A stretch of 64,000 nt of DNA from an uncultured Gammaproteobacteria bacterium (GCA_963848305.1 CAWKDC010000001.1:1056001-1120000), one strand, 5' to 3'. Shown: positions 4,905 through 21,200, counted from the first letter of the stretch. Notes: generated by a model not told the origin, from the sequence alone. Numbers and translations are program-made.

Positions 4905-5237
4905 GAACTTCCCCTCCTCTCTGAGGGCGTAAGTGTGCCACTTTTATATCACATTATCAATTTTGCGCCTTTACATGCAAAAATATTCATAAAAGATATT
5001 GACAATATCATTGATGATAGTTATTATATCTTTGTTGATGCGGCATTGATGATAACAACGATAAATATGCTGCAGCAATGGCAAGTGCATAAGCGATAAT
5101 AACATAGCACTTGCCGGAAATAAGAGAAGAAGAACAATAAGATAATAAGTAGGAGGGCACTCCCCGACACAGCGCAAACGTGGCCCGGCTGGATCGGGGG
5201 GAAACCCCGTTAAAAAATCTCACCATCTACCATCCCC

Positions 5238-5645
5238 TCACATCTCCCCCATCGGACAAACCTCTGCAGGCTCCGGCACACATTCCCACCAAAATTCTTC
5301 CCTGCGCCAACCTGCATGTGGCAAAAGATCCGCCACAATGTTAAATCCCGGTTGCGCGCGCAGTGATAATGTTTGAGCCATTGCTTCATGCGTATATACA
5401 CATATCGCATAACCTGATGCATCATTTACATCGGGTGCTGACGCATAAGTATGATAATAAATGCCAGCCAACACAGGTTGTGTGCGCTTTCCAGGAACCC
5501 ACTGCCAAAACCCACGCAGGGTTTGTTCGAAATGGCATGAATCGACTTGAGCGGCTTCCTCGCAAATTACCTGAGATGGGCAATAAATATGGGCGAGAGT
5601 GCTGACACTGAAGAGTAATAAAAATAACCCGATGATTTTTTGCAT
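5238..5645 (-). CDS. Secreted Cys-rich hypothetical protein
   Basis: Signal peptide MQKIIGLFLLLFSVSTLA, six Cys, AAGGA RBS. Confidence 0.7.
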   Translation of the reverse strand: MQKIIGLFLLLFSVSTLAHIYCPSQVICEEAAQVDSCHFEQTLRGFWQWVPGKRTQPVLAGIYYHTYASAPDVNDASGYAICVYTHEAMAQTLSLRAQPGFNIVADLLPHAGWRREEFWWECVPEPAEVCPMGEM

Positions 5646-5732
5646 AATACATTCCTTATTGTTATTGTGTGAATGATGGGATGCATTGTACAATGCTTTT
5701 TTGGTTTTTTGTCAACATTTGGAATGATCACC

Positions 5733-6473
5733 ATGAAAAAATATATGCTCACGTTCACTGCTTTTTTTATCGCAGCCAGCGCGCAGGCGAACATGGAATT
5801 TGTGGCGATGGGCGGTGCGGGTATCATCGATGTTGACGATTTTACGTTGCAAGTCACTGAATGGGAAACTGACAAACTCTTCCAAACCAATCCGAGTGAA
5901 TGGAGTCCGTGGACAGCCCAAATCGGCATGGGCTACATCTACGCGTTTGAAAAACCTCTGCTCACCGGTGATGTGCGTTGGTTTTCCAGCATCACGCCGC
6001 AGATCAACCTCTATTATATGAATGGATACGACATCACTGGCGAAGTATATCAGTTCGAAAGCCCCGAATACCACTTCCTCAATGAAGAGATGCATTATAA
6101 CAGCACAAGGTTGATGTTTGATCTCAACATCAACATTGCCCAATACCAATGGTTGTCTTTGTATGCGATTGCAGGTGCTGGCGCAGCATGGCATGTTTTC
6201 GATATCCATGCCAAACCGAATGAAGCCGGACTGGATTGCGGTGTGATCGCGTATGATTTTCAAACAGGTCGGCTTAACACCTTTGCGTATGAATTTGGTG
6301 CAGGGGTCACGGTTCCGATTGTGAACCATTTCTCAGTATCACTTGAATATTTGTATGCAGGTTTTCATGATATCTCTTTAGAAAATGATGTCAGCGCGGG
6401 TTTTGATATTGAAGGCTCTGAATTGAGTCTGACATCACAATCCATCCTGCTCGGTTTCCGTTTTGCCCTGTGA
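5733..6473 (+). CDS. Outer-membrane beta-barrel protein (Legionella-type opacity/OmpA-like)
   Basis: Signal peptide, FAYEFGAGV, SLEYLYAG, amphipathic terminal strand ILLGFRFAL. Confidence 0.8.
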   Translation: MKKYMLTFTAFFIAASAQANMEFVAMGGAGIIDVDDFTLQVTEWETDKLFQTNPSEWSPWTAQIGMGYIYAFEKPLLTGDVRWFSSITPQINLYYMNGYDITGEVYQFESPEYHFLNEEMHYNSTRLMFDLNINIAQYQWLSLYAIAGAGAAWHVFDIHAKPNEAGLDCGVIAYDFQTGRLNTFAYEFGAGVTVPIVNHFSVSLEYLYAGFHDISLENDVSAGFDIEGSELSLTSQSILLGFRFAL

Positions 6474-6489
6474 TTGAAAGGAATCAAAC

Positions 6490-6990
6490 ATGTTTAAACA
6501 ACTCTGCACTTTGATCGGATTACTCAGTGTCACCTGCACAGTCATCGCAGACCACTGCCCATTATCCCTCACAGGTCCAACGACAACCACCCTCAATTGC
6601 AGCCCATCTGACACCGAGTTAAATTCGACGGTGCTCACATTCACAGTCACCAACCACACGCACGCACCCATCGGCTTCCACCCTACCATCGGGGGCGCTG
6701 CTCCCACACCATCATCCATTGTCGTGACAGGCGGCAGCTGTCCAAAAAATGTTGTGCGTGCTCGCAACTCGTGTACCGTTGAGGTGACTGTCACCGCAGG
6801 CTTGTGCAGCGCCATTACGCCACCATCTCAAATGATTGATGCCGTACTGGATGTCAAACCTGATATCAATCAAGGTCTTTTGAAACAGCCATTTGAGGTC
6901 ACTGTTAATGGAGCTATCTTTCGCCAAATTTCTTGCGCTGCTCAAAAGGATGGGGAAATCATGTGTCGCTTCCACAAAAATGACATTTGA
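6490..6990 (+). CDS. Secreted hypothetical protein, Ig-like beta-sandwich candidate
   Basis: Signal peptide; LTFTVTN...GSC...SCTVEVTV pattern. Confidence 0.6.
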   Translation: MFKQLCTLIGLLSVTCTVIADHCPLSLTGPTTTTLNCSPSDTELNSTVLTFTVTNHTHAPIGFHPTIGGAAPTPSSIVVTGGSCPKNVVRARNSCTVEVTVTAGLCSAITPPSQMIDAVLDVKPDINQGLLKQPFEVTVNGAIFRQISCAAQKDGEIMCRFHKNDI

Positions 6991-7120
6991 GTAAGTCAAG
7001 GCCTTTGGCCTTGGGAATTGTCTGCCTCCGGCCTGGGACGATGACCGGAGGAAAGGGGGCTTCACATAAGATCCTTGGCACGGTTCTCCTGAAGCCAATA
7101 ACTAATATATGGAAAAAATT

Positions 7121-7648
7121 TCATTTCCACTTGATCGAACAACCCATGCTGGGGATTTGCTCCCGCGAGCCTTGCCCTGTTTGCGCAATTTGCTGCATGG
7201 CCAATAACAATTCTTGCTTGCCATCACCCGAAAATCGCCCACGGTATTGCAGTTTCAATTCTTTGTTGTATCCGAAAAAATCTGGGGTACACACGGCACC
7301 ATAAGCTTTTGCGGTTGCTTGAGTCGCATCAATTAAATAATGGAATGGGAAATCCAGTTTTTGAGCAAGTTTAGCCATATTGTCCGGCGCATCTTCAGGA
7401 TATTCTTCATAATCATTCGCCATGATCGCGACACAGCCGATACCCTCTTTCATGAGTTGTCGTGCATCTTCAACCAATTCGGGCAAAATCTTTTTCACAT
7501 AAGGGCAATGGTTGCAAATAAACATCACGAGCAAACCTTTCGGCCCGCGACAATCTGCCAAATGATACGTCTTACCTTCACTGTCTTTAAGCACGAAATC
7601 GATGGCGTTTGTATCAAAATCACAAACAGGGGTGTGTAACAGTACCAT
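7121..7648 (-). CDS. Thioredoxin-family (AhpC/TSA-like) protein
   Basis: LLVMFICNHCPYV, YGAVCTPDFF, YRGR, PSMGCSIKW motifs. Confidence 0.92.
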   Translation of the reverse strand: MVLLHTPVCDFDTNAIDFVLKDSEGKTYHLADCRGPKGLLVMFICNHCPYVKKILPELVEDARQLMKEGIGCVAIMANDYEEYPEDAPDNMAKLAQKLDFPFHYLIDATQATAKAYGAVCTPDFFGYNKELKLQYRGRFSGDGKQELLLAMQQIAQTGQGSREQIPSMGCSIKWK

Positions 7649-7844
7649 TGCATTTCTCCGTATATTGAATGTTGAGACATGATACCGCATAAAATGACAC
7701 AATACCAATATGCGGCAAATCATAAATCCTGCAGAGCTGAGTTCTAATACTTATATGCAGTCATATGAGAAAGATTTTGAATCTATTCATCCATAAAAGT
7801 TTAAATGATTTGAGATATGATCACCCAAGGTTGTCATATTCCAA

Positions 7845-7881
7845 TATAGATGAACTGGATGCCAATTGGGCCACAGGCTGT
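7845..7881. repeat. Diverged left fragment of the tRNA-island repeat
   Basis: 31/37 nt identical to 10223-10259 (core TATAGATGAACTGGA exact), hand alignment. Confidence 0.75.
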
Positions 7882-7934
7882 GAACCCATTTGATGGGTGA
7901 CTTTGCGAAACAGCCTGTTTCACAATTAGGAAGT

Positions 7935-9538
7935 TCAAAGAGAGGACTCTGCCATACTCATGTCTTTCAACTCTATCTCTGAAGCCGAAACATCCCCCGT
8001 GTGCCGTTCCTGCTGACCTTGCCTCCAGATAAAATACTGTTGCGTTGGGGCGGGATACTTGGCTATCAGCGCTGCACACAGCTGATGCCAATCACTCGTC
8101 CCTGCGGGATCCTGCGCATAACTTTTCCGCAAAATCATCACGATGTGATGAGCTAACGCACGCTCATTGTTTGCATCCACTGGAAGCCTGCATAAACGGT
8201 TCAATTCATCACGATCTGCCTCCGTCACGTGTCTGGCCGGTGACACAAACATCATATTGTATCCACCGATGGTATAGCGAGGCGTTATCTGGTGCAGCAC
8301 CGCATAACCCGCGAGTCTAAAGGGCCGATTATGCCCAATATTGATTGAATTAGTAATATTAAAATGGCTCCAAAAATTCGGACCAAATATGAGATCTCTG
8401 TTGGCGCCCTTCTCAATCAATCGACAGAAAATCTCGTCGTGATCATTCCCCCCGAGCTCCCTCAGAAGAGCATAGCTAGAATCATCTTGTAATGTTTGAT
8501 TGACAATCTCTGCTGTCATATCTGTTTTGTTCAGAGGGCCATGATAATTTTTTTCCATACTTCTGCAGTTTGTGCATGCGCTTGATTATTTTCTGTATAG
8601 TTCTGAAACGCGCGAAAAAAAGCAAGATAATGATGAATTGCAATGCCCAACAATGTATATGATCTACCATCCATATCATGTTTCCATGCCTCAAGCAAGG
8701 AAGATGTTTGAAATACAAATAATGCACTGCTTTGAACGGGGAATTTTTCATCCTGGATGAATGAAAACAAGGCGCCGAATTGATTTTCTGTGATGGCATC
8801 TGCTACCCACTCACGAGTAATCGAATTAGCATGGGTCGAACGATACTGCGGTTCCCACTTGTTATCATTTACATAGGTCTGGAATGCTGGCCAGTTCAAT
8901 GCCATCTCATGCTGACATTGATTCACCAACGAACACCACGCTTTTGGTTTCTTTTTAAGATCAATGCCCAAAAATTGGAAAAAACCTTCGGGATCATGCT
9001 CAAAGGGAAATCCCTTCACATCAAACATCACTTTTCTTTCTACAAAAAATAACGCTACCTTTGGCTTTCTCTCCGCAATCGCACGATTAAGATAGTGACT
9101 ATCTTTCCCAATAGGCAACGATATCCACAATATGTGAAATAGAAAAGTATCATCGACGGCCAAAGCCTCATCAAAAAATTCGCTGGTGTCTGGGATGCGT
9201 CGAAATAAGGCCGAAATAATACGTTCATTTTTTCCGGGTAGAAACTGCTTGGCCAATGACCTAAAATCCAGCGTTGTTTCTTGCGGAATATGGGATATAA
9301 ATGTGTTAATCAGCTGCGACATGTATTCAGGCACAATCACAATAGAGCCTGTTCCAAATGCACGGTATCTCGCCTCGAAAAATTTGAGTACAGCGCTGAC
9401 CTGGGCTATGTCATTCAAGTCGATGCTCTTTAAATACGCTATCAACCCACTTAGGGTTTCAGCATTCCAAAAGTGGATCGCTGAATACTGCCCCAGCTGT
9501 TCGGTTATCTCTTTGATTTTTTCAGGATGACTTGCCAC
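7935..9538 (-). CDS. Effector-like hypothetical protein, probably one gene split by a frameshift near 8531-8558
   Basis: ORFs 8531..9538 and 7935..8558 overlap across an A7 run; one added base fuses them (~534 aa). Weak ankyrin-like segments (YLNRAIAE, TLLGIAIH, LIEKGANRD). Confidence 0.6.
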
Positions 9539-9620
9539 GGTGCACTCCCAATGGGCACTGAATTAAGTCAGCATTGTATCCTGATTTTCAAGCAGAAGGC
9601 AAGGACAGCACGAGGACAAG

Positions 9621-9672
9621 CATAAAAAATGCGTATTCATCAGCCTCGTCAGAGGCGTTAGATGCAGAGCCC
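9621..9672. repeat. Right fragment of the tRNA-island repeat
   Basis: 9640-9672 TCAGCCTCGTCAGAGGCGTTAGATGCAGAGCCC is identical to 13251-13283. Confidence 0.9.
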
Positions 9673-9736
9673 TTTGAGAAAAGAAACGCACTATCTCATT
9701 TTTGTACAGTTTCCACATCCGAAACGGCTCGACGAT

Positions 9737-10114
9737 CTACATATCCGCATCAGAAGGCTTTCCTTCAATCATCCTGACACTTCCATGAATATGAATGATT
9801 TGATCTTCTTTAAATTTGAAATAGGCAATCACTTCAGCCAGAATAGGTTGCCCGGCAAAATTTTTGCCCGTTGGGTAGTACAGTGCAAAAAGCTCATCTC
9901 CCTGCTCAAGGATATGCCGATAATCGATAGATTCCAGCACGATATTTTTCTTTTGCTCAATCACATGCTCAATGTATGCATCTCTTCGCAAGGTAACCCC
10001 GTTGATCGATTGGTCAAAGTCAGGATGAAAATATTCTTTAATCAGCGCTTCGACATCAGCCTGAGGCGCATAAACTTCAGCCCAAATTTTTTGAAGCAGT
10101 GCCTTGTGACTCAT
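9737..10114 (-). CDS. SnoaL/NTF2-like family protein
   Basis: YFHPDFDQSING..L.R..YIEH pattern and terminal beta strands; GAGGA RBS. Confidence 0.75.
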   Translation of the reverse strand: MSHKALLQKIWAEVYAPQADVEALIKEYFHPDFDQSINGVTLRRDAYIEHVIEQKKNIVLESIDYRHILEQGDELFALYYPTGKNFAGQPILAEVIAYFKFKEDQIIHIHGSVRMIEGKPSDADM

Positions 10115-10137
10115 GTATCCAAAAATCCTCGATAATT

Positions 10138-10419
10138 GCTGGGCCACTAGGACTTGAACCTAGGACCAAAGGGTGGTGAGATCAAAAAATAACGATTCTT
10201 GCAAATTCTACATCACTTCTATTATAGATGAACTGGAGGTCACTTGCGGCACAAGCTGTATCGCAAATGATGAATACACATAGGCGGGTCTAACGCCCCT
10301 TTAAAAAGGTTTTGTTACATAAAAATCGAATATTCTTCAGCCTCGTTAGAGGCGTTAGATACAGAGCCCCATATGCAGCCGCCGCAGGCGGCGGAATGGG
10401 GGGGGAATGGGGTATGATT
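10138..10419. repeat. Direct repeat R1 containing a copy of the tRNA-Ile 3' half (att-like)
   Basis: Near-identical to 13051-13321; begins with GGGCCACTAGGACTTGAACCTAGGACCAAAGG matching the tRNA at 14588-14620. Confidence 0.95.
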
Positions 10420-10565
10420 CCCCTCTAAGCCCTGAAGGAGCGTGAGAAAAATAAATAATAACAATCAAATCAAGCTATTAAAAACATCCTATTGTCACCA
10501 TTTATTATCTATTGATAGGAAAAGTTATCTGTGGGTGTCCCGCCAGTGTCCTACGGCACAGTCTA

Positions 10566-10595
10566 TTGCCATTCTCTCCCATTTTCGACTATAAT
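10566..10595 (+). promoter_or_regulatory. Sigma70-like promoter for the abi locus
   Basis: TTGCCA-N18-TATAAT just upstream of the hairpin and abi gene. Confidence 0.55.
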
Positions 10596-10608
10596 CACCA
10601 GTAACACG

Positions 10609-10650
10609 GCCCGCTCCTCTGCACTGAAAGGTGTACGGGTGGGTTTTCTT
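10609..10650 (+). ncRNA. Hairpin RNA candidate upstream of the Abi gene (abiF-motif-like antitoxin RNA)
   Basis: GCCCGCTC/GGGTGGGT outer stem, TGCAC/GTGTA inner stem, GAAA loop, then T-tract; between promoter and AbiF-family start. Confidence 0.55.
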
Positions 10651-10670
10651 TTAGGAGTAGAAGCAAAGGG

Positions 10671-11645
10671 ATGTCCATTTACCTCAAACCCCACCTTTCA
10701 TTTCAAGACCAACTTAATCTACTGAAATCGCGCGGGCTCATCATCACTGATGAGACACTTGCTTTGGCTCACCTTAATCGCTTGGGTTACTATCGCTTGA
10801 GTGGATATTGGTACCCCTGTCGTCAGTTAATCCCAGCTTCTGACCCTAAACGAGGGCACGCTCGTCCTCAAAGATATGATGAATTTATGCCTCAAGCAAG
10901 ATTCCAAGACGCTGTGGCGTTATACGTTTTTGATAAAAAATTAAGACTACATGTCCTAGATGCTATCGAGCGTATAGAGGTAGCTGTCCGCGTGGACATT
11001 GCATACCTAATGGGTAAAAAAGATACATTTGCTTATACTAAACCTGAGTTACTACATGGCCATTTCACAAAAAAGGTTAACCCTAAAACAGGCAAAACCA
11101 AGCATGAAGAGTGGTTGTTGAAACATGAGTTTATGATCAGTCGCTCTAAAGAAGATTTTGTTGAACATTTTAAAAATAAGTATGAATTACCTTTACCGAT
11201 ATGGGTTGCAATCGAATTATGGGATTTTGGTCTTTTATCGATGTTTTATCACGGTATGACCGTTGCAGATAAAACAACGATCGCCAAAAAATATAACGTG
11301 GCTGATTGGCAAGTCATGGAAAGCTGGCTGCGTTGCATAAACTACGCAAGAAATGTTGCCGCACACCATAATAGATTATGGAACCGGAATTTAATTGATC
11401 AACCTAAGATCCCAAAAAAAGGAAAGATGCCTGCGTTCGATTCATTCATTGGGCACACTGAAGCCACATCACGGATATACATCCTTTTGTGTATCTTGGC
11501 ACATTTTATGCAGCAAATTTGTCCTCGTTCTTCCTGGGCAACGAGAGTGAAGACTTTGATCGCCTCTTTCCCAAATACGGAATATTTTGATATTGTACAC
11601 ATGGGCTTTCCACCAGATTGGATGGATCATTCATTTTGGAAGTAG
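10671..11645 (+). CDS. Abi family (AbiD/AbiF, Abi_2) HEPN protein
   Basis: KP.LS..DQL.LLKSRGL, GYYRLSGYW, LY.FDKKLR, IERIEVA.R, PIWVAIELWDFG, RNVAAH HEPN motif. Confidence 0.92.
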   Translation: MSIYLKPHLSFQDQLNLLKSRGLIITDETLALAHLNRLGYYRLSGYWYPCRQLIPASDPKRGHARPQRYDEFMPQARFQDAVALYVFDKKLRLHVLDAIERIEVAVRVDIAYLMGKKDTFAYTKPELLHGHFTKKVNPKTGKTKHEEWLLKHEFMISRSKEDFVEHFKNKYELPLPIWVAIELWDFGLLSMFYHGMTVADKTTIAKKYNVADWQVMESWLRCINYARNVAAHHNRLWNRNLIDQPKIPKKGKMPAFDSFIGHTEATSRIYILLCILAHFMQQICPRSSWATRVKTLIASFPNTEYFDIVHMGFPPDWMDHSFWK

Positions 11646-11799
11646 TCATTTCTATCCGGTATGCTCCGCCTATCTCTAAATCACCAGTGTCAATTTTTTC
11701 ATGTATCCGAACATCATAGTACACACTGTCCAAAGCCCTCCCCCCAACGACCTCAAATCAAGCCTACCTACCATTGAATTAAAGCTACAAAAGCCTAAC

Positions 11800-11910
11800 T
11801 CCATGGGAGGCATATAACGCTGTGAATGAAATATAACCACACTTAATTTAATTCGAATAGCCAGGGCTCTTAAAGTAGAGGTTGGCGATCTGTTGGAAAC
11901 AATATTTTAG
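11800..11910 (+). pseudogene. XRE-family HTH regulator remnant
   Basis: Reads SMGGI*RCE*NITTLNLIRIARALKVEVGDLL, i.e. the YMGGIERGERN..L.NL..IA.AL consensus with two in-frame stops. Confidence 0.75.
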
Positions 11911-11961
11911 GGTATACTTGCGATCATTTAGTGACGTATTTTGCTGTTGATAGTGGGTTAT

Positions 11962-12900
11962 ATGAAATATAAGCTAGATTTGTATAAATATAAGCCTGCC
12001 TTGGGGAAAACCCTCGGTGGTCACACGAAAGGACGCCAACACTTAGATGCTTTTTTAAAGCAAAAACTTTGGATGACCCCATTATACAAACTGAACGATC
12101 CTTTTGAAGGGTGTTTTCATATGTCAATTCCAAAACGAGTAACTTTGATTAAGTATCCTGCTCTTCTTCGTGAACTTCTAATTAAAACTGGTCATAGAGG
12201 AATTGATGAGCTTAACAATGAGGAGATGATCAAAAAAATTCCAGGCCTACGTAAAAAGATAAAATTAGATGGAAGTCATCAAATGAATAACAAATTCGAC
12301 AATTTTGGTGCTTTTTCATTTGCTCACTCTTACTCAAATATTCCTATGTGGTCACATTATTCGAACGATCATCAAGGATATTGTGTGGTTTTTGAAGCTG
12401 AGCTCGACTATCCTTTTGAGCAGATGAAGCTCACTGAAGCACAAAAAGATAAATATAATAAACTCTTCCTAAATGGAGACGAGATCATTCAATTCAAATC
12501 GAACGATGGAGATTTCGTTTTTGCCTTCGCGAAGATAAAATATAGGAAAACAGTACCCATAATTAATTTCGAAGAAAATCTAAAATTGAGAAATGGGGAT
12601 GATTACGTAAAAATGCGTTTTGCTCTTGAAAACGCTTTTGGCGTCAAATCACGTCAGTGGTCTAATGAAAATGAATACAGGCTTATTGTTAATGCAAACA
12701 GTGAAAAGCATGCCGATAATAAATCCATAGATATGAAGTTATACATTCCTTTCCTGCAGGTGACCGGTATTATTCTTGGTGAACAAATGATTGAAGATGA
12801 TAAAGAGATCATTACGAAAGCATGTCGAGATCAAGGGGTCAGAGTTTATCAAGCTAAGCACTCAGCTCAATTATACGCTGTCGAGTTAGACCCTATTTAA
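11962..12900 (+). CDS. DUF2971-domain protein
   Basis: LNDPFEG, MWSHYSNDHQGYCVVF, KS.QW..E.EYRLI motifs; AT-rich. Confidence 0.85.
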   Translation: MKYKLDLYKYKPALGKTLGGHTKGRQHLDAFLKQKLWMTPLYKLNDPFEGCFHMSIPKRVTLIKYPALLRELLIKTGHRGIDELNNEEMIKKIPGLRKKIKLDGSHQMNNKFDNFGAFSFAHSYSNIPMWSHYSNDHQGYCVVFEAELDYPFEQMKLTEAQKDKYNKLFLNGDEIIQFKSNDGDFVFAFAKIKYRKTVPIINFEENLKLRNGDDYVKMRFALENAFGVKSRQWSNENEYRLIVNANSEKHADNKSIDMKLYIPFLQVTGIILGEQMIEDDKEIITKACRDQGVRVYQAKHSAQLYAVELDPI

Positions 12901-13050
12901 ACACTTGGTAACATGCGCTCTATTATCGAGTGCCCGATAAAAAACATCAACGCTTTCCCATCTTTCATACTATTGCCCTACTAAATAACCAGAGCGTTTC
13001 TACAAGCTATCTTATTGCGCTTTATCTATTTGATTTAAATTAACCTTTTT

Positions 13051-13321
13051 GCTGGCCCACTAGGACTTGAACCTAGCGACCAAAGGGTGGTGAGATCAAA
13101 AAATAACGATTCTTGCAAATTCTACATCACTTCTATTATAGATGAACTGGAGGTCACTTGCGGCACAAGCTGTATCGCAAATGATGAATACACATAGGCG
13201 GGTCTAACGCCCCTTTAAAAAGGTTTTGTTACATAAAAATCGAATATTCTTCAGCCTCGTCAGAGGCGTTAGATGCAGAGCCCCATATGCAGGCGGCGGA
13301 ATGGAGGTATTCGGTATGATT
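13051..13321. repeat. Direct repeat R2 containing a copy of the tRNA-Ile 3' half (att-like)
   Basis: Near-identical to 10138-10419 with only a handful of differences. Confidence 0.95.
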
Positions 13322-13394
13322 TCTCAGCAAACCATCAAAAATGGCTGGTCGGAGGCAGTTTTGGGCATGCAAATTGAAACCCGTCTTTATGGAC

Positions 13395-14108
13395 TTAAGG
13401 CTCATCAGGTAAGTCGTTATCGATTTTCTCAGCATAGGCAACAAGATCCTGAGTAATCTGCGGATCAAATGGCTTCCTGTTAGCACATTCAAGCTGCTTC
13501 TCGTATCTTTTTCCCGTCCATGATGTACTGTAAACAAATCCCGAGGCATCACTTCCTTCTGCCCCCCTTGTAGTAGGTTTCCCGTTTATATCATAGGTAG
13601 TATAACTTGGATCATAAATAGATTGTGCATTATATGAGGGCATATCAAACACAACCAATCGACACGTCCCGAAATGGTCATCTAAGAAGTAGGCTGTTAC
13701 ACCAGTCCAATATCCATCATCAAGACCACCACTCGGCACAAAACCCAATAAATGTTCACTATCCACAGATGATATACCTTTGAAAGGGAATGTCATTTGA
13801 AACTCAGAAGGGCTCATCCTTAAGTGTCTAAAATAAGGATCACTGTCTTTTTCTGTGAGTGCAGTAGCCTTTTTGCTCTTTAATGTCAGCAACGTTGCCG
13901 CATTTTCGGAGTAAGTATGATAATACCCATTATTCTTAATTTGACGCCTTATCTCTTCACCTTCCTCTATTTGGCTATATGTTTGTTCTTCCATTATTGT
14001 TGGCTGGTCAGTTGAGCGCACGACGTAGCTTTCATAAGCCATAGAACTTAACGAACATATTGCAGATAACGTCAATGTTAAAAATTGAATTGAATATGCT
14101 TTTGTCAT
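13395..14108 (-). CDS. Secreted hypothetical protein
   Basis: Signal peptide, GAGGAG RBS, operonic with 14120..14494. Confidence 0.75.
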   Translation of the reverse strand: MTKAYSIQFLTLTLSAICSLSSMAYESYVVRSTDQPTIMEEQTYSQIEEGEEIRRQIKNNGYYHTYSENAATLLTLKSKKATALTEKDSDPYFRHLRMSPSEFQMTFPFKGISSVDSEHLLGFVPSGGLDDGYWTGVTAYFLDDHFGTCRLVVFDMPSYNAQSIYDPSYTTYDINGKPTTRGAEGSDASGFVYSTSWTGKRYEKQLECANRKPFDPQITQDLVAYAEKIDNDLPDEP

Positions 14109-14119
14109 CAAAAACTCCT

Positions 14120-14494
14120 CTAAGGTTCCCAGTCCCACCAACCATCATACATACTACAATCCGTAGAGTAACTATTACGAACCCAAATTATTTTATTTGA
14201 ACTGTCCTCAAATAAATAATGTTCTCCACGAACAGTCCACCCTCCCGTACCTTCACCCCAATGGACTGCTGCTGAGCGATGCGTGTTTGCTATTCCTGAT
14301 CCAAACTTATGCGATGCTCCAGTTTTAGAAGTATGAGTACTATTAGTTCCCAGACGATGAGGCTTTAAAGCATCCCAAGAAATCGACTCATTATTACCAC
14401 AATTAGCGCGGCTATGGGTAGTCAACCCATTAAACCCGGCTTGCAATACGCTGGAGAAAATAAGGAAAGAAATGAAGATGATTGTTTTTTTCAT
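14120..14494 (-). CDS. Small secreted hypothetical protein
   Basis: Signal peptide MKKTIIFISFLIFSSVLQA; HSRANC.NNESISW ... DCSMYDGWW. Confidence 0.75.
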   Translation of the reverse strand: MKKTIIFISFLIFSSVLQAGFNGLTTHSRANCGNNESISWDALKPHRLGTNSTHTSKTGASHKFGSGIANTHRSAAVHWGEGTGGWTVRGEHYLFEDSSNKIIWVRNSYSTDCSMYDGWWDWEP

Positions 14495-14586
14495 ATGTTC
14501 CGGTACTCAAAGCGACAACATCCCATCAACTCTTCTACATGGAAAACTGATTTTCCAGAATAAGCAAAAAATATCAATTAAATCAA

Positions 14587-14660
14587 TGGGCCCACTAGGA
14601 CTTGAACCTAGGACCAAAGGATTATGAGTCCTCTGCTCTAACCAACTGAGCTATGAGCCC
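14587..14660 (-). tRNA. tRNA-Ile2 (anticodon CAT), CCA not encoded
   Basis: GGGCTCATAGCTCAGTTGGTTAGAGCAGAGGACTCATAATCCTTTGGTCCTAGGTTCAAGTCCTAGTGGGCCCA folds as a cloverleaf. Downstream of rpoD like E. coli ileX; Ile versus Met identity is inferred. Confidence 0.93.
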
Positions 14661-14773
14661 GAAGCGGGCATTGTAGCATAGACAAAACGATATTGACACT
14701 CAAAAAAGCACAATGTAAGCTGACTAAAGTTTAATGAAAGAAGATTGCATTCACCCCTACAATTTTGGCTCCA

Positions 14774-15598
14774 TTATTCCATGGGGCTCTTCACTTTCAC
14801 CTTAGTTTGAGAAGCCTTTGTTGGACTCGCATATGTCCCGCCTTTTTTACTGTTATATGAGTGTGTCATTTTTTCCTTCACAGGGGTACCAGGTTTCGAA
14901 GAGGTGGATTCGAAAGCCGGACTGTAATGCTCGGTACGTTTTTGCCCATCGCGGACAAGTTTCAAATGTCGCGTCGCATTTTCATTGATCCTGATTTCCG
15001 TTGGAGATTGACTATCATCAACAAAATCTAAAATCACAAGTTCAACGTTTAACATCTTTGCCAATGCATCAATCACTGGTCCTTCAGCCCACTCCTTATC
15101 CTTTTGCATTTTTGCGCAAAAATCATCCAACGTACCCAGTTCTTCATCTGGGCCAAAGCCAACATGGAGCGATTTATCTTTCCTCAAGTAATCAACAGCC
15201 TCGCTTCTCAACTGTGCTGCCGTTTTCTTGGGGAAACGATAATGTTCTAAAAGCATGCTGACAGAAGAAAAGAAACAATTACCATCGCCGGGAACTTCTC
15301 CCTTGATATAACCTTGCTCCGGATGACTACTCTCCTCACTTGTATTGACCCTGGCTTTAACTGTTTTTAACTCATGAACAGTAAAATACAATTTTTCAAA
15401 ATGTTCCAAGAGATCTAATGCTTCTGCTAAATGCACATCGACTGATGCAATTGAACAGATTTTCTTATTTCTCCATGTTATTTCTTCTACGGATTTCAAA
15501 GTTGCATCTTTAAAAATCTCAAGATGCGTTTTTAATCGAACGTGTTCTCTCTCAATCAGATTGTGTAATGTGATGACACATGGAGTAGATTTTTTCAA
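14774..15598 (-). CDS. OTU-family cysteine protease/deubiquitinase domain (probable C-terminal part of a large gene)
   Basis: VPGDGNCFFSSV, LRSEAVDYL, WAEGPVIDALAKML, EHYSP. TTG start without RBS; frame stays open up to ~15649. Confidence 0.85.
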   Translation of the reverse strand: MKKSTPCVITLHNLIEREHVRLKTHLEIFKDATLKSVEEITWRNKKICSIASVDVHLAEALDLLEHFEKLYFTVHELKTVKARVNTSEESSHPEQGYIKGEVPGDGNCFFSSVSMLLEHYRFPKKTAAQLRSEAVDYLRKDKSLHVGFGPDEELGTLDDFCAKMQKDKEWAEGPVIDALAKMLNVELVILDFVDDSQSPTEIRINENATRHLKLVRDGQKRTEHYSPAFESTSSKPGTPVKEKMTHSYNSKKGGTYASPTKASQTKVKVKSPME

Positions 15599-15599
15599 T

Positions 15600-17399
15600 T
15601 CAGCGATGACCTTGGATTTGGTCCGAAAAAGCCTCTTTGTAGTAAATTTTTAGCTCGGGGTACATGGGCAACAGCCATTCTATAAAGAATCTCAATAATG
15701 TTGCATGATCATCCAATGCATCTAATTTTTTGACCAATGCAAGATCTGCTTCAACAACGTCCAATGCTCCGTTAGCATGAGCTTCATAAGCTCTTTTCAT
15801 CAAATCTCGATCAGGGAGTTTCTGTTTATCAGCAGCTGCAGCTTTAGATAATTTCGCGGCGGATCGACTCAATAAAGCTTTGGCATAATTTGTGGCAAGC
15901 GTTCGTTCACCAGGTGACGCCATGGCAGTCGTTACATCTCGCAAATTATTCATGAGTGTGAGCCAGTTATTTTGGTGTGCATTTATGTTTTGCTTGATGG
16001 TTGTAGCAAATCCAAAATCGTAATTTCCCCCAGCGTTTTGATCATCTTTAACACGATTTACCTCATTCTCCATATCCGTATGAATACCCTTAACGGCATC
16101 TTCACAACCACTGAGACTATCACCTATAGCAGGTTGATCAAGATAAGGTCTGAGCATTTCTCGCCCAATCGTTCTCATATGATGGGCATCATGAAAGCGA
16201 ATTTCAGAAGCGCGTAGATTATGCACAAACAAACCAGCGAAAATGTGATAACCAGGATTAGGAAACTGTGCTGCGAGTGAATCAGGCAATGCGTGCGACG
16301 CATGAAATCGATTTGTTGTATTATCTGGGCCTGCAAGCCCACTGATATAATCAGCCAAGACAAGACTTAATACATTTAATCCAGTTGCATGTGCCTGAGT
16401 GGCATTTGCATCTTCTGAGTGAGCTTCTGATTCAGCAGAAGAAGGCCATTGTTTTACATAAAGCGCGACAACAACATCTCGCAATGCGGATTCGTAGTTC
16501 TCAAACAATTTTTCCCAAAATACTTTATTGGTCTGGCATTGCAAGATAAAGTCTTTAAGTTCATTGCCTTTTGTTTGAATTAAATTTAACTGCTCATGTT
16601 GCAATTTTCTAGCGGGGACGTGAGATACGGCATGGCCATATAAAAACGTATGATTATTCATCACAAAGTTAATCAGACCTTTCGACCCTGTAGCCCATAC
16701 AAACGGATTGACATATCGCTTCTTATTTATTTTAGGATCCAAAAAACGCGAATAGGCAGCTATTGAATTGATGCTGGTTTCATATCCATAGCTACCATCT
16801 TCCCGATGCGCAGTTCTCAAAATGGTTGCAAGCATATTTGCTTCATTTTTTTCTGTTAAAGTATTTGAGCCTGCTAATGTATCGCTTGATGCATCCACCG
16901 TTAAAACTGCATAAAACCGTTGATAATATTCAATCAATTTTCTGCGAGCAGCATCATCATTTGGATTTAACTGTTGTCCTAGTTCTTGCTCAGAGTACAG
17001 ATGACTGAACAACAATAAATGTTTAAATTCTTGTGTATATGTATCAGTGAACAATGTTTCATGTCGTCGCGCGATTTCTTCTAGCCCTGTTTGGATAGCA
17101 TTTAATTTATCATATATCGCTGCGAAACCTTTATTGATGTCATTTTTTAATTCATGAATTGCTTCACTGAGTAGTTTATGACTTTCCATAATCAGCGAAC
17201 GCAACTCTTCAACTTTTACGTCGAGATGCGCAGCAAGACCTTCGATATATTTTTCAATCCGATCAAATCGTTTGTCCATATGGAAAGTTAATCTTTCCAA
17301 TTGTCGCAATATAATTTCATCAGGAGTAGCTCTGCCGCCCTTTGCATAAGGCAGCAATGCCCATAACGAGTGTGGCCATAGCACCAGCGAGCGCGACAT
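15600..17399 (-). CDS. Helical/coiled-coil middle part of a probable large toxin/effector
   Basis: TPDEIILRQLERL..MDKRFDRIE heptad region; overlaps the upstream ORF by a one-base shift near 17340. Confidence 0.65.
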   Translation of the reverse strand: MSRSLVLWPHSLWALLPYAKGGRATPDEIILRQLERLTFHMDKRFDRIEKYIEGLAAHLDVKVEELRSLIMESHKLLSEAIHELKNDINKGFAAIYDKLNAIQTGLEEIARRHETLFTDTYTQEFKHLLLFSHLYSEQELGQQLNPNDDAARRKLIEYYQRFYAVLTVDASSDTLAGSNTLTEKNEANMLATILRTAHREDGSYGYETSINSIAAYSRFLDPKINKKRYVNPFVWATGSKGLINFVMNNHTFLYGHAVSHVPARKLQHEQLNLIQTKGNELKDFILQCQTNKVFWEKLFENYESALRDVVVALYVKQWPSSAESEAHSEDANATQAHATGLNVLSLVLADYISGLAGPDNTTNRFHASHALPDSLAAQFPNPGYHIFAGLFVHNLRASEIRFHDAHHMRTIGREMLRPYLDQPAIGDSLSGCEDAVKGIHTDMENEVNRVKDDQNAGGNYDFGFATTIKQNINAHQNNWLTLMNNLRDVTTAMASPGERTLATNYAKALLSRSAAKLSKAAAADKQKLPDRDLMKRAYEAHANGALDVVEADLALVKKLDALDDHATLLRFFIEWLLPMYPELKIYYKEAFSDQIQGHR

Positions 17400-18966
17400 A
17401 AGGTGCGGCAGGCCCAGAGACCGCTACAATTGTGCCCCAGGTACATAAAGTGGCCGCAATACTTAATGCAGGCACAGCGATACTTGTGATGATCGCACCC
17501 ACATCTGATTTACCACATGCAGTGCATAAGACACCAATAAACTGCGCAGCTGATTGCGCAACCATAAGCGTTCTTCCTAGGGATAAATTTTCTTTTCTTA
17601 ATGATGACTGATCATCTGAATGATTGTATTCCGATAAGCTAGGTTTTTTTGATAAACCATCACCATCAATGACAATGTTTTCAGCGCCAGCAGAAGCAAC
17701 CCCATTAAATACCTTGCTCCATGTTTGAGGCGCGTCATCTTCCTTCATCATCGTTGAAATAGGTGAAAAGCTTTCTGAGGCATATTCGAGCTGTTGATCA
17801 AGCAGTGACACCTTGTTTGGTACTTCTTGAAATATTTTTCCTGTACCATAATTGAAGGCTGATAAGGGTTGTGACGTATCCCCGATACCCGTTTTGCTGA
17901 ATATGCTATTTAAATCATTCATGCTATCTGCGGCTGTTTGATAACACGCAGCGGCATTCAAGAATGGTTCTGCAAGTTCTGACAACTTAGCGTCATCAAA
18001 CCCCAAAGAACCCGAAGACAATCCGACGCAATGGGCAATGTTGACATGATCTTTGGCAAGGTCAGATAGTAAGCATGCGCCATGCTTTGTAAATTCTTGT
18101 AGATTATCGAGATTAATTTGTGATTTCGGCGCCTTCAACTCTGCCATACCTATACTCATCATATTCGATAAATGTGTCAGTGGCGATTTTCCATCAATGC
18201 CGATTTTCAACGCTTCATTTTTAAGTTGATCCCCCAGCGGCCCATTCACAGCATTCGCCATTGAAAATGCTTTATCGCGCATCATTTGCAAATAATCCAT
18301 TTTGTCACTGCTTAACAAATGAAGTGACCCAAGCACTTGAGGAAAAACCATTGGGTCTTCAAATTCATATGGTTGGGGATGTGGAATTTTATATTTTTTA
18401 TAAAATGATTCTGGGAAGTCACCTTTTTTCAAACAATCTTGAATTTCAGTGTAACGAACATGTATACCTGTATATTTTATATGATCTCTTTTTTCAGCAT
18501 GAGATGCTTTTCCCTGTAGAAAATTGTCATCCCACTGATCTTTTTTAATAAAACCGGCGACTTCTTTCATCGACACAGGGCTGTTAGCTGCCAAAGAGAT
18601 CGCTGCTGCCTGCCTTGCAGGCGACATTTTTGTAAATCGATCTCCGCCTAATTGTGTCGCTGCAATGATTGCCGCTTCATGAATAACATAATTTTCGAGA
18701 CGTTGTGCTTGAGCAGGCGTGAGTGTTTCACTCGATGTTTTGAGCGCTTGAACCTTATGAGGAATGCCACACGCTTTCAATACTCGAGCGGCATCCTTTC
18801 TATCTAAATTAAAACCGGTGGAAATGGTAGGATGTTTATCACCAGGATTATAAGCTTTTAACTTTCTTCCTTCATGTGCACGCAGAACAGATTTCACGAA
18901 ATCAAAATCTTTAATCAGTACAGGCCCTTGATATTGATAGTGTGTGTGAAATTTTCCATGCGGCAT
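17320..18966 (-). CDS. N-terminal part: GH24/pesticin-like lysozyme domain plus hydrophobic hairpin
   Basis: LRAHEGRKLKAYNP....PTISTGFNL and SPARQAAAISLAAN resemble the T4-lysozyme fold; two hydrophobic helices at the end; GAGGGG RBS. Confidence 0.7.
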   Translation of the reverse strand: MPHGKFHTHYQYQGPVLIKDFDFVKSVLRAHEGRKLKAYNPGDKHPTISTGFNLDRKDAARVLKACGIPHKVQALKTSSETLTPAQAQRLENYVIHEAAIIAATQLGGDRFTKMSPARQAAAISLAANSPVSMKEVAGFIKKDQWDDNFLQGKASHAEKRDHIKYTGIHVRYTEIQDCLKKGDFPESFYKKYKIPHPQPYEFEDPMVFPQVLGSLHLLSSDKMDYLQMMRDKAFSMANAVNGPLGDQLKNEALKIGIDGKSPLTHLSNMMSIGMAELKAPKSQINLDNLQEFTKHGACLLSDLAKDHVNIAHCVGLSSGSLGFDDAKLSELAEPFLNAAACYQTAADSMNDLNSIFSKTGIGDTSQPLSAFNYGTGKIFQEVPNKVSLLDQQLEYASESFSPISTMMKEDDAPQTWSKVFNGVASAGAENIVIDGDGLSKKPSLSEYNHSDDQSSLRKENLSLGRTLMVAQSAAQFIGVLCTACGKSDVGAIITSIAVPALSIAATLCTWGTIVAVSGPAAPYVALAGAMATLVMGIAALCKGRQSYS

Positions 18967-19234
18967 ATCTATTCCCCCTCCTCGATGATATTCGCCGAGA
19001 ACTCTATCACAGTTTGAAAATGAATGTCACGTGTTGAAAGTGAAGCACCCATTGTTCAATATCTGAGGACGCATAGCAGTTTATCCCCGCGAAAGCGGGA
19101 ACGCCCCTACACAAGCGTGGCCATATTTTTATCACGCGGGCGAGAACGATATGCCATCGCGCCGCTACCGATCGTCAGCAGGGAATAGGTGAATGCCATG
19201 GTTAGTGTTTTACCGAGATCTTGATTCTCACCAT

Positions 19235-19341
19235 GATGGGTGTCACCCATCCAAGCGTTTTCCGGGATGACAGCTGGATGGGTGGAACCCATCCAAGCAT
19301 TTTCCCAGATCACAGCTGGATGGGTGGCGCCCATCCAAGCA
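19235..19341. repeat. Three 42-bp tandem palindromic units
   Basis: GATGGGTG-NNN-CCCATCCAAGC at 19235, 19277 and 19319, directly after the rpoD stop. Confidence 0.9.
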
Positions 19342-21200
19342 TTATTTCTTATCTTCCTCGTCCTTTTCCTCTTCTTCGAGGAAACTGCGGAGCAGCTCAG
19401 CGCGAGAAGGATGACGAAGCTTACGCAGGGCTTTAGCCTCAATTTGACGAATACGCTCGCGCGTCACGTCGAATTGTTTACCGACTTCTTCCAACGTATG
19501 ATCGGTATTCATTTCAATACCGAAACGCATACGCAACACTTTAGCTTCACGGGCTGTCAGCGTAGACATCATGTACGCCATGGCTTCTTGCAAACCCTTT
19601 TGCGTCGCGATTTCGAGCGGTGAATAAATATTCGTGTCTTCAATAAAATCGCCCAAAGAGGAATCGTCATCGTCACCCACAGGGGTTTCCATGGAGATGG
19701 GCTCTTTGGCAATTTTCATGATTTTACGAATTTTATCTTCGCTCAATTCCATACGCACTGCCAATTCTTCTGGCGTGGCTTCACGGCCCATTTCCTGCAG
19801 CATTTGACGTGAAATACGATTCAGTTTATTGATCGTTTCAATCATATGAACAGGGATACGGATCGTGCGCGCTTGATCGGCAATTGAACGTGTGATGGCC
19901 TGACGGATCCACCAGGTCGCGTACGTCGAGAATTTATACCCACGGCGATGTTCAAATTTATCCACGGCTTTCATCAAACCGATATTGCCTTCTTGAATCA
20001 AATCCAAGAATTGCAAACCACGGTTCGTGTACTTCTTCGCAATGGAAATCACCAGACGCAAGTTCGCTTCCACCATTTCTTTTTTCGCACGGCGCGCTTT
20101 CGTTTCAGCCGAGGAAATAGCGCGATTCAATTCTTTGATCGCTGCAATGGTTAACTTGTGTTGCGATTCGAGTGCAGCCAACTTTTGCTGCGCTTCAAGG
20201 ATCGCCGGTTTTTTCGCAAGCAGTGCTTCTGCTTTTGATTTCACCGCTTTCTCTTTGGCAAACTCATCTACCCAATTCATATTGGTTTCATTGCCAGGGA
20301 AAGATGCGATGAAAGCATCGCGATCAATTCTCGCTTCCTTCACGCAGATTTTCATGATCGCACGTTCTTGCGCACGGATGGCATCAACCATGTCACGCAC
20401 CACGCCAATCACGTCATCAAATTGTTTCGGCACCAGTTTCGCAGTTTCAAGCACATTCGCCATTTCCAAGAATAACACTTGCGTGCGTGGATCATCAAAA
20501 CCATAAGTTTCCCAAGTTTTGAGATATTCTGGATACAATGTTTGAACAACCGCAAAACGTTTTTGCGTTTCGAGTGGATCGGGCCGGCGTCGGCTTCGTC
20601 CGTCACCACAGCGCCTGCAGATTCCTCTTCATCATCCGCCGCCAAATCAATTTCTTCAGCACCCACTGCTTCTGGCGCGACAACAGGATGATCAGCAGAG
20701 ACATCGATAAAGCCAATCAAGAAATCAACCAAACGCGATTCACCTGATTGAACTTTCACAAATTGCTCGAGCAAATATCCCACCAATGGAGGATAACTTG
20801 CCACGAGACGCATGACTTCTCGAATGCCTTCTTCAATGCGAATGGCAATGACAATTTCACCTTCGCGGGTTAAGAGTTCCACAGAACCCATTTCGCGCAT
20901 GTACATTCGAACAGGGTCCGTTGTGCGACCCAATTCATTCAAAGCAGCCAGCGCTGCCGCCGCTTCTTCTTCCACTTCTTCATCATTGGCGACTTGCGGG
21001 TCGGCCAATAAAGCTTCGTCCTCCGCTGGCGCTTCCTCAACAACAGGAATGTGCAAGTCTTCGGACAGGGTTAACATCAAGTCTTCCAACTGCTCGGTAT
21101 CTGCATCGGGCAAGTAATCGTTTAACTGCTCTATTGTCAAATATCTTTGCTCTTTCCCTAGCGCAATCAATAATTTAAACTTTTCTTCCTCAATCTTCAT
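19342..21200 (-). CDS. rpoD: RNA polymerase sigma factor RpoD (apparent frameshift at ~20582)
   Basis: [52 protein letters not shown]. Adding one base to the G run at 20581-20583 restores the conserved GPDP motif. Confidence 0.97.

Follow-up and report, generated by a model that had tools for sequence, protein, structure and literature searches.

An integrase-less gene array behind a tRNA-Ile2 gene of an uncultured gammaproteobacterium, divided by repeats that resemble attR scars

How does a row of unrelated genes, divided by repeats that each carry part of a tRNA, come to lie behind an intact tRNA gene without an integrase beside it? The question is raised by positions 7,845 to 14,660 of a 64,000-nt stretch from an uncultured Gammaproteobacteria bacterium (GCA_963848305.1, CAWKDC010000001.1:1056001-1120000), referred to below as the window; the genome assembly amounts to 1.9 Mb and is 92% complete. 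A sequence-only reading had described the locus, downstream of tRNA-Ile2, as minimal non-autonomous elements, each with an attachment (att) site, a conserved cis module and variable cargo, that accrete in tandem and are mobilised in trans. Following the present analysis, the two repeats, R1 and R2, are on balance probably attR scars, left by related integrative elements that stood in tandem and whose integrases have been lost.

The tRNA gene, its repeats and the inserted DNA

The features on which the argument turns are given first (window coordinates, strand).

14587-14660, minus strand: tRNA-Ile2 (anticodon CAT), intact, putative integration target; ARAGORN, Rfam tRNA 72.9 bits
13217-13328, minus strand: distal part of R2, truncated copy of a dispersed element resembling repetitive extragenic palindromes (REP-like); nhmmer C1:1069217-1069328, E 5.9e-26, aligned with eight other copies
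13096-13216, minus strand: unique arm of R2, putative P arm of unit A; within the 183-nt identity to R1
13052-13095, minus strand: core of R2, copy of tRNA positions 32-74; repeat search and alignment
10302-10422, minus strand: distal part of R1, full-length REP-like copy; nhmmer C1:1066302-1066422, E 1.3e-30
10182-10301, minus strand: unique arm of R1, putative P arm of unit B; repeat search and alignment
10139-10181, minus strand: core of R1, copy of tRNA positions 32-74; repeat search and alignment
9616-9678, minus strand: partial REP-like copy; nhmmer C1:1065616-1065678, model positions 52-113
7839-7881, minus strand: 43-nt arm relic, 81% identity, near the AhpC gene; genome-wide BLAST, E ~7e-5 to 9e-5

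R1 (10138-10422) and R2 (13051-13328) are direct repeats with a spacing of 2.9 kb and with different cargo between them. In the repeat search, 10164-10384 and 13078-13298 were aligned over 221 nt at 98%, with four mismatches only, and 183 nt (10164-10346 and 13078-13260) were identical without any difference. BLAST of 10138-10419 against its own genome returned 13051-13321 at E 3.9e-118, confirming the previously described repeats with a tRNA 3′ match and near-identical non-coding DNA. The repeat of ~270 bp was found to be real but composite, each copy consisting of a tRNA-derived core of ~43 nt, a unique arm of ~120 nt and, as its distal part, a dispersed REP-like element of ~110 nt.

The tRNA likeness, previously put at ~32 bp, is present but starts at tRNA position 32, not 41, and includes three mismatches. 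The tRNA tail was matched at 29 of 29 nt in R1 (tRNA positions 41-69) and at 32 of 33 nt in R2 (positions 41-72). Both cores carry the same three anticodon-loop changes, at tRNA positions 36, 37 and 39, and read CTCACCACC where the tRNA has CTCATAATC, confirming the replacement that had been noticed in both copies. The GGGCCC run is one base short in both cores, and the R2 core has one extra base as well. GCAA follows directly after the R1 core, the R2 core and the tRNA of a genome of the same genus (G002), whereas the live tRNA is followed by TTGA.

Apart from R1 and R2, the unique arm had no further copy in the genome except the 43-nt match at 7839-7881, which is probably the remainder of a third and oldest scar; by inspection, no tRNA-like core was seen at the expected place beside it. 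Of the fragments previously assigned to a third repeat, those at 7839-7881 thus match the unique arm, while 9621-9672 is merely another REP-like copy. An RNA gene in the repeat was considered and rejected: Rfam gave no match at E<=1 save the tRNA and an antisense chance match, and the fold z-scores of −2.3 and −3.8 were ascribed to the REP-like hairpins. Promoter-like sites showed no excess (20, against 18.2 in shuffles).

Using a profile built from nine copies, the REP-like hairpin element gave 12 nhmmer hits at about 11 places in the genome. Copies outside the window lie at C1:158204, 436397, 494885, 495340, 738045, 1185966 and 1557294 and at C3:195957, C1 being the contig that holds the window. 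Ten of the 11 places inspected were intergenic, and convergent 3′ ends were a frequent setting. A search of 60 relatives with R1 as query did not recover the element, which appears to be species-specific. R1 and R2 cease to be homologous within this element and not at any defined border of a cassette, and the outer edge of the repeat differs between the two; the outer ~110 nt of each repeat are a REP-like element unrelated to integration. A different REP-like array, of three tandem 42-nt units with internal palindromes, lies at 19235-19360, just downstream of rpoD.

The 6.9 kb between the tRNA and the AhpC gene were identified as extra DNA because the corresponding site in G002 is nearly empty: there, rpoD and the tRNA are followed by 0.7 kb with a truncated DUF1016_N open reading frame (ORF), and then by AhpC. 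The flanks share 80-82% DNA identity with G002, and the AhpC gene 79.7% with the gene after the tRNA in that genome. GC content is 41.0% in the array, compared with 45.1% in the window and ~46% in most of C1. The near-empty site, the deviant GC content and the patchy distribution of the cargo support the earlier claim of a foreign insertion at the tRNA 3′ end. Compared with an Islander-type island signature, the intact tRNA with displaced 3′ copies, the absence in a relative and the deviant composition were all found, and an integrase inside was not. The arm was also considered as a piece of a DUF1016/YhcG gene and rejected, as only the 32-nt palindrome 7898-7929 matched G002 (E 6e-4) and the peptide likeness was seen by eye.

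The tRNA(CAT) at 14587-14660 is the sole tRNA gene of the window. It was assigned to Ile2 by elimination among the three CAT tRNAs of the genome, because the other two look like initiator and elongator Met tRNAs; judged from their sequences, one has an initiator-type GGG/CCC anticodon stem, which we take to be the initiator mark, and the other is elongator-Met-like. The gene is placed behind dnaG-rpoD, presumably the same place as that of ileX in E. coli. Among 80 rpoD loci of named Gammaproteobacteria, blastn matched this tRNA downstream of rpoD in 59, and the rpoD relatives in named genomes (63-74% identity) were scattered over the Gammaproteobacteria, including Pseudomonas, Berkiella and metagenome-assembled genomes (MAGs) of Coxiellaceae. 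As a side observation, tRNA-Ile2 is split after position 37 by ~266 nt in two named MAGs, L097 (11236-11569) and L107 (13698-14011). In L097, a group I intron accounts for the interruption (Rfam RF00028, 81.8 bits); a group I intron in tRNA-Ile(CAU) is a known situation.

Reading away from the tRNA 3′ end, the order described previously (two ORFs, R2, the DUF2971, XRE and Abi genes, R1, SnoaL) was recovered. The cargo was annotated by family searches of the window with ORFs of at least 50 aa, resulting in the following features.

14120-14494, minus strand: unit A ORF of 124 aa, without known family; no Pfam, NCBIfam or PADLOC hit
13395-14141, minus strand: unit A ORF of 248 aa, without known family; no Pfam, NCBIfam or PADLOC hit
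11941-12900, plus strand: unit B DUF2971 protein; Pfam PF11185 E 9.8e-10, PADLOC PDC-S31 E 1.1e-35
11830-11907, plus strand: remnant of a Cro/C1-type helix-turn-helix (HTH), 26 aa, previously called a dead XRE; stop-to-stop frame, HTH_26 E 0.0054
10671-11645, plus strand: unit B AbiD/AbiF-type protein (Abi_2); Pfam E 6.5e-56, PADLOC AbiD E 1.3e-68
9737-10147, minus strand: unit C small protein, weakly SnoaL-like; SnoaL_2 E 3.8e-4, 21.4 bits, below the cut-off of 27
7935-9538, minus strand: two overlapping ORFs of 335 and 207 aa, without family; overlap 28 nt
7121-7723, minus strand: AhpC/TSA-type thiol peroxidase gene; Pfam, conserved chromosomal flank ending the array

Unit A measures 1.5 kb and unit B 2.9 kb, and cargo lies on both strands. 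Both ORFs of unit A have N-termini that look like signal peptides by eye. For the 248-aa protein, Atlas gave 'hypothetical' clusters only, below the recognition mark of the tool. The defence character previously proposed for unit B is supported by AbiD and by PDC-S31, a candidate defence family of PADLOC. The HTH_26 match covers profile positions 39-61 of 63 and stays below the cut-off. A DNA relative of the AbiD gene (69% identity) was found in one genome, G005, at an unrelated, non-tRNA locus; with no tRNA and no integrase within 10 kb it was discarded as a clue and is uninformative on mobility.

Read evidence was taken from low-depth contigs of four public runs from four studies, one of which may be the source sample. 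In one of them, run X1, a contig shows an additional A behind 8532; by codon arithmetic, this base would fuse the 335- and 207-aa ORFs into ~540 aa; both are probably one gene split by a 1-nt assembly frameshift. For the 335-aa ORF, Atlas yielded a weak ankyrin-like lead only, again below its recognition mark.

Integrases and the attachment site

None of the seven PF00589 matches of the genome lies within the window. Resolvase (PF00239) had no match over the cut-off anywhere in the genome, Arm-DNA-bind_3 (PF13356) had none in the window and was found genome-wide only in two tRNA-Thr islands, and tblastn of five integrases of this genome against 5000-21000 gave nothing at E<=1. These searches agree with the sequence-only reading that no integrase lies in the array. 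The five non-Xer tyrosine recombinases of the assembly are located at tRNA-Thr (two; C1:466067-467368 and C3:198878-200098), at tRNA-His (one) and in a pair at C1:258-261 kb, and no cognate or helper integrase for the tRNA-Ile2 site was identified among the recombinases of the assembly. Because the assembly is only 92% complete, a helper integrase could be missing from the data.

The two tRNA-Thr islands are classical ones, with displaced tRNA tails of 46 and 44 nt and P4-type integrases. They lie at the CGT gene (C1:465.9-475.0 kb) and at the TGT gene (on C3), and in both the tail is followed by a non-coding arm of 130-200 nt and then, directly beside the arm, by the integrase (406 or 433 aa). 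The array resembles them in its intact tRNA with a displaced tail at the far end and a non-coding arm beside the tail. It differs in what comes next: R1 and R2 have other genes or the REP-like element where the islands have their integrase. Interpretation of the unique arm as the spacer upstream of a P4-type integrase was rejected, as no sequence is common with the tRNA-Thr arms and no integrase N-terminus is left.

A relative with an integrase at tRNA-Ile2, which the earlier reading had called for, was obtained at the class level. In this genome, G046, tRNA-Ile2 is followed at a distance of 122 nt by a 357-aa PF00589 integrase, and tRNA positions 33-74 recur on another contig as a 42-nt copy with 100% identity. 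The tRNA segment is thus the same, but the arms of the G046 island are unrelated to the R arm (best match E 0.18). One of the 80 named rpoD loci, L083, comes from an uncultured Pseudomonadales MAG. Here, tRNA-Ile2 at one end and a 42-nt copy of positions 33-74 at the other enclose a unit of 4.1 kb, which contains three ORFs (esterase-like, P460-like and amidohydrolase-like) and no integrase. Since its copies accompany the G046 integrase island and the L083 unit, this segment of tRNA-Ile2 is, judged from the sequences, an att site that has been used in Gammaproteobacteria.

The unique arm was found in none of 60 relatives, 22 of which matched the tRNA part of the query only (query positions 1-43), and blastn against plasmids and phages gave no match. 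Five pattern scans also gave 0 hits (one pattern against genome contigs, two against metagenome contigs and two against viral contigs); two exact or degenerate patterns were used, and diverged copies are missed by exact-pattern scans. No copy with other cargo was thus recovered in the relatives, scans, plasmids and phages, and the conserved cis module of the sequence-only reading was not upheld.

Nor was the proposed att-bearing unit found to have a conserved second arm, as the likeness does not extend beyond the core towards the tRNA-distal side. The sequences that follow the three cores were compared with each other and with those of G002, L083 and G046; the best scores were reached by 9 to 12 of 300 shuffles and are not significant after allowing for the 36 comparisons made. 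No arm-type motif recurs on both sides of the cores. A 24-nt inverted match beside the tRNA and the R2 core, listed as a repeat pair, was rejected as a shared arm; the best explanation is a near-palindromic motif rich in AT (AAATCAA type), which follows tRNA-Ile2 in 5 of 19 relatives by our own count.

Origin of the array

In the favoured explanation, 7724-14586 would be horizontally acquired DNA that accreted behind tRNA-Ile2, an ileX-type gene downstream of rpoD, through site-specific integration that targeted the 3′-terminal 43 nt of the tRNA. Every integration would rebuild the tRNA and leave an attR scar at the far end, made up of the arm of the element and the displaced tRNA tail. R2 and R1 would be two scars from one element family and 7839-7881 probably a third, with the tRNA now serving as the putative attL of the proximal unit A. 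In both copies, CTCACCACC would represent the element-derived side of the crossover, which, because it marks that side, would have taken place 3′ of tRNA position 40; the same three core changes fit the element-derived side of an attR and one attP type. The integrase genes and tRNA-proximal arms would since have been lost, leaving an integrase-less row in which orphan genes stand beside those for AbiD and PDC-S31. That R1 and R2 are identical over 183 nt may be due to a very close common source, to gene conversion between the copies, or to both. From the earlier interpretation, the foreign insertion, the att-bearing repeats and the missing integrase are retained, and the cis module is not; the repeats look like scars of attR type, with the left side from the element and the right side from the tRNA. 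In form, the units are probably remnants like cis-mobilizable elements (CIMEs), and immobile.

Several observations argue for serial integration followed by decay. Among them are the near-empty site in G002, the low GC content of the array, the core changes common to R1 and R2, the use of the same tRNA segment in G046 and L083, the absence of a recombinase or its remnant from the window, and the precedents discussed below. Such integration occurs in this genome, at the two tRNA-Thr islands. The cargo is patchy: the 248-aa protein is found in 0 of 11 family genomes, and the DUF2971 protein in 1 of 300 other genomes of the class. The XRE remnant, the truncated REP-like copy in R2 and the third scar, cut to 43 nt, are taken as signs of decay.

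Other observations weigh on the opposite side. Had two or three integrases decayed in place, some fragment of them would be expected, yet none remains, and an autonomous element with this arm was not found in any collection searched. The sequences after the three cores are unalike, where related elements should share both arms. GCAA follows both cores, where simple sequential integration predicts the ancestral flank after one only. The perfect identity over 183 nt, beside cores that differ by indels, would fit recent copying of R equally well, and assembly frameshifts make small differences between the R copies unreliable. Single-base indels are also seen in contigs of other runs, so that the small core indels may be spurious.

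Part of these points could be accommodated by a single integration followed by homologous processes, which is considered possible but doubtful. The only scar of one island would have been the starting point, and the second R and the present cargo order would then have arisen through a tandem dimer with differing deletions, unequal crossing-over or recombination between REP-like copies, and gene conversion would keep the copies identical. The 183-nt identity and the GCAA after both cores look as if core and flank had been copied together, and the homology ends inside the REP-like element. A 594-nt contig of run X1 joins 9639 to 13251 via 33 nt exactly common to the REP-like copies at 9640-9672 and 13251-13283; if real, this joint corresponds to a REP-mediated deletion of 3611 nt by homologous recombination. 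It may equally be an assembly chimera: its depth is 3.85, only 33 nt are shared, in contigs that are presumably built from 31-letter words, and X1 has no other cover on 9640-11010. Cargo A and B share nothing, so that at least two large independent deletions would be needed, and the third arm relic at 7839-7881 fits repeated integration better.

Unlikely, too, is the view that the units are active non-autonomous cassettes, or functional CIMEs, in which core and arm form a working site and an integrase located elsewhere moves single-cargo units at tRNA-Ile2. That integrase would reside on a helper element, in the unassembled ~8% of this 92% complete genome or on an incoming island. An arm that is perfect over 183 nt beside wholly different cargo would suit this view, as would two units that have no integrase remnant, as if none was ever present, and the integrase-less L083 unit between tRNA-Ile2 and its 42-nt copy. 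Mobilisation of CIMEs in cis is documented in other systems (PMC5704250). The arm, however, is present in no other genome or collection searched, no second arm is conserved and no arm-type motif is repeated. An unrelated REP-like element determines where the repeat ends on its outer side, and this edge is not the same in R1 and R2. No cognate integrase was identified among the five non-Xer recombinases, of which two are tied to tRNA-Thr genes and one to a tRNA-His gene, with the other two forming the 258-261 kb pair. Contigs from the four studies contain pieces of all three cargo units with 0-1 differences and show no variation of cargo. No att-to-att excision joint was present among the listed contigs of the four runs, the cover being too thin to count against excision.

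Less likely still is the stronger form of that view, in which the core and the 120-nt arm would be a portable site read by an integrase elsewhere, with single-cargo units for defence and host interaction exchanged at tRNA-Ile2; the dispersed REP-like element may then help to shuffle cargo next to the site. If true, this would be a tRNA-anchored platform, integron-like in its working and built from the att sites of islands.

A mis-join creating the second R copy or the cargo order is very improbable: assembly errors exist (rpoD is frameshifted), C1 starts with ~150 kb at 55-58% GC compared with 42-48% elsewhere, suggesting a chimeric join there, and none of the contigs listed from the four runs bridges an R copy, but R1 and R2 are told apart by four mismatches, several indels and unique flanks that are unlike on either side, and lie only 2.9 kb apart. 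Moreover, the unique flanks are matched, with 0-1 differences, by short contigs from four studies, which break off near the repeat edges as they would at a true repeat.

Neighbouring features, related systems and meaning

Upstream of the array, rpoD (19342-21200, minus strand) is split into two overlapping frames near 20530. Because rpoD is essential, the split points to an indel error in the assembly, and other pseudogenes and 1-nt differences of the window need caution. Between rpoD and tRNA-Ile2, a second insertion compared with G002 is present at 14774-18966 (minus strand; 4.7 kb, 41.3% GC). Three ORFs, 548, 599 and 274 aa long, abut one another in it, and the 274-aa ORF has an OTU cysteine-protease domain (Pfam E 1.1e-11). 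In contigs of other runs, indels at 17328/17332 and 15625 put the three frames in register, by codon arithmetic. The ORFs may be one OTU-domain protein of ~1400 aa, possibly an effector-like deubiquitinase.

On contig C1, the first three 50-kb bins have a GC content of 55-58%, compared with 42-48% for the remaining 29. These first ~150 kb hold an NrfD gene (58.5-59.5 kb) and the tRNA-His-adjacent integrase (127.6-128.7 kb). Sequences of two organisms may have been merged in C1, or the contig may contain a foreign segment of very large size. On C3 (243 kb), 20 tRNA genes are present, of which 14 are clustered in ~10 kb, together with a separate tRNA-Thr island and its integrase. C3 may represent a megaplasmid, a phage-like replicon or a further piece of the chromosome.

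Among known systems, the closest in form are CIMEs and their accretion, in which integrase-less units flanked by att sites are stacked in tandem, with ICESt1/ICESt3 of Streptococcus thermophilus as the paradigm (PMC5704250). The array is alike in the lack of integration and transfer genes, in tandem stacking and in having direct repeats of att type where a target gene has its 3′ end. Unlike the paradigm, it has no known related autonomous integrative and conjugative element (ICE) or integrative and mobilizable element (IME) with the same arm, conserves one arm only, consists of very small units and belongs to an uncultured gammaproteobacterium. Family and tblastn searches detected no integration or transfer genes in the array. 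Cores lie on both sides of units A and B, with the arm conserved on one side only, and neither derivation from nor mobilisation by a known ICE or IME of the same att specificity was found.

At the ssrA gene of Dehalococcoides, islands stand in rows and each ends in a direct repeat of the 3′ end of that gene; for 15 of them, which are without integration module, a nature as CIMEs or a fixed state was proposed (PMC3146451). A non-ssrA motif is described there just upstream of each repeat, like CTCACCACC here, while the target is a tmRNA, the repeat measures 20 bp and the recombinase module is of the serine type, unlike tRNA-Ile2 and its 43-nt repeat. For the tycheposons of Prochlorococcus, successive integrations at one tRNA are described that push older elements inwards (bioRxiv 10.1101/2020.12.28.424599). 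Their stacks resemble the array in partial tRNAs between elements, degenerate remnants and extra partial tRNAs that are scattered; in contrast, they have tyrosine recombinases, replication modules and demonstrated excision, and the array here has no such genes.

Integron cassettes likewise form rows of short, promoter-poor cargo units split by repeats that resemble recombination sites. The array differs in having no intI, attI or attC-type palindromes, in its cargo on both strands and in its tRNA-derived sites. It is not an integron, because no tyrosine recombinase lies in the window, the direct repeats are derived from a tRNA and the cargo lies on both strands.

The array is probably an ordinary example of the known pile-up and decay of islands, with no sign of trans-mobilised cassettes in the searches made, and it adds an example, not a principle. 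It offers a clean case in which to ask whether integrase-less, att-flanked units are fossils or are moved by a helper, and whether dispersed hairpin repeats reshape such arrays. On a small scale, it presents a tRNA gene beside the essential dnaG-rpoD operon that gathers defence and orphan genes in a soil gammaproteobacterium with a small genome, and it shows how little may remain of the elements that delivered them.

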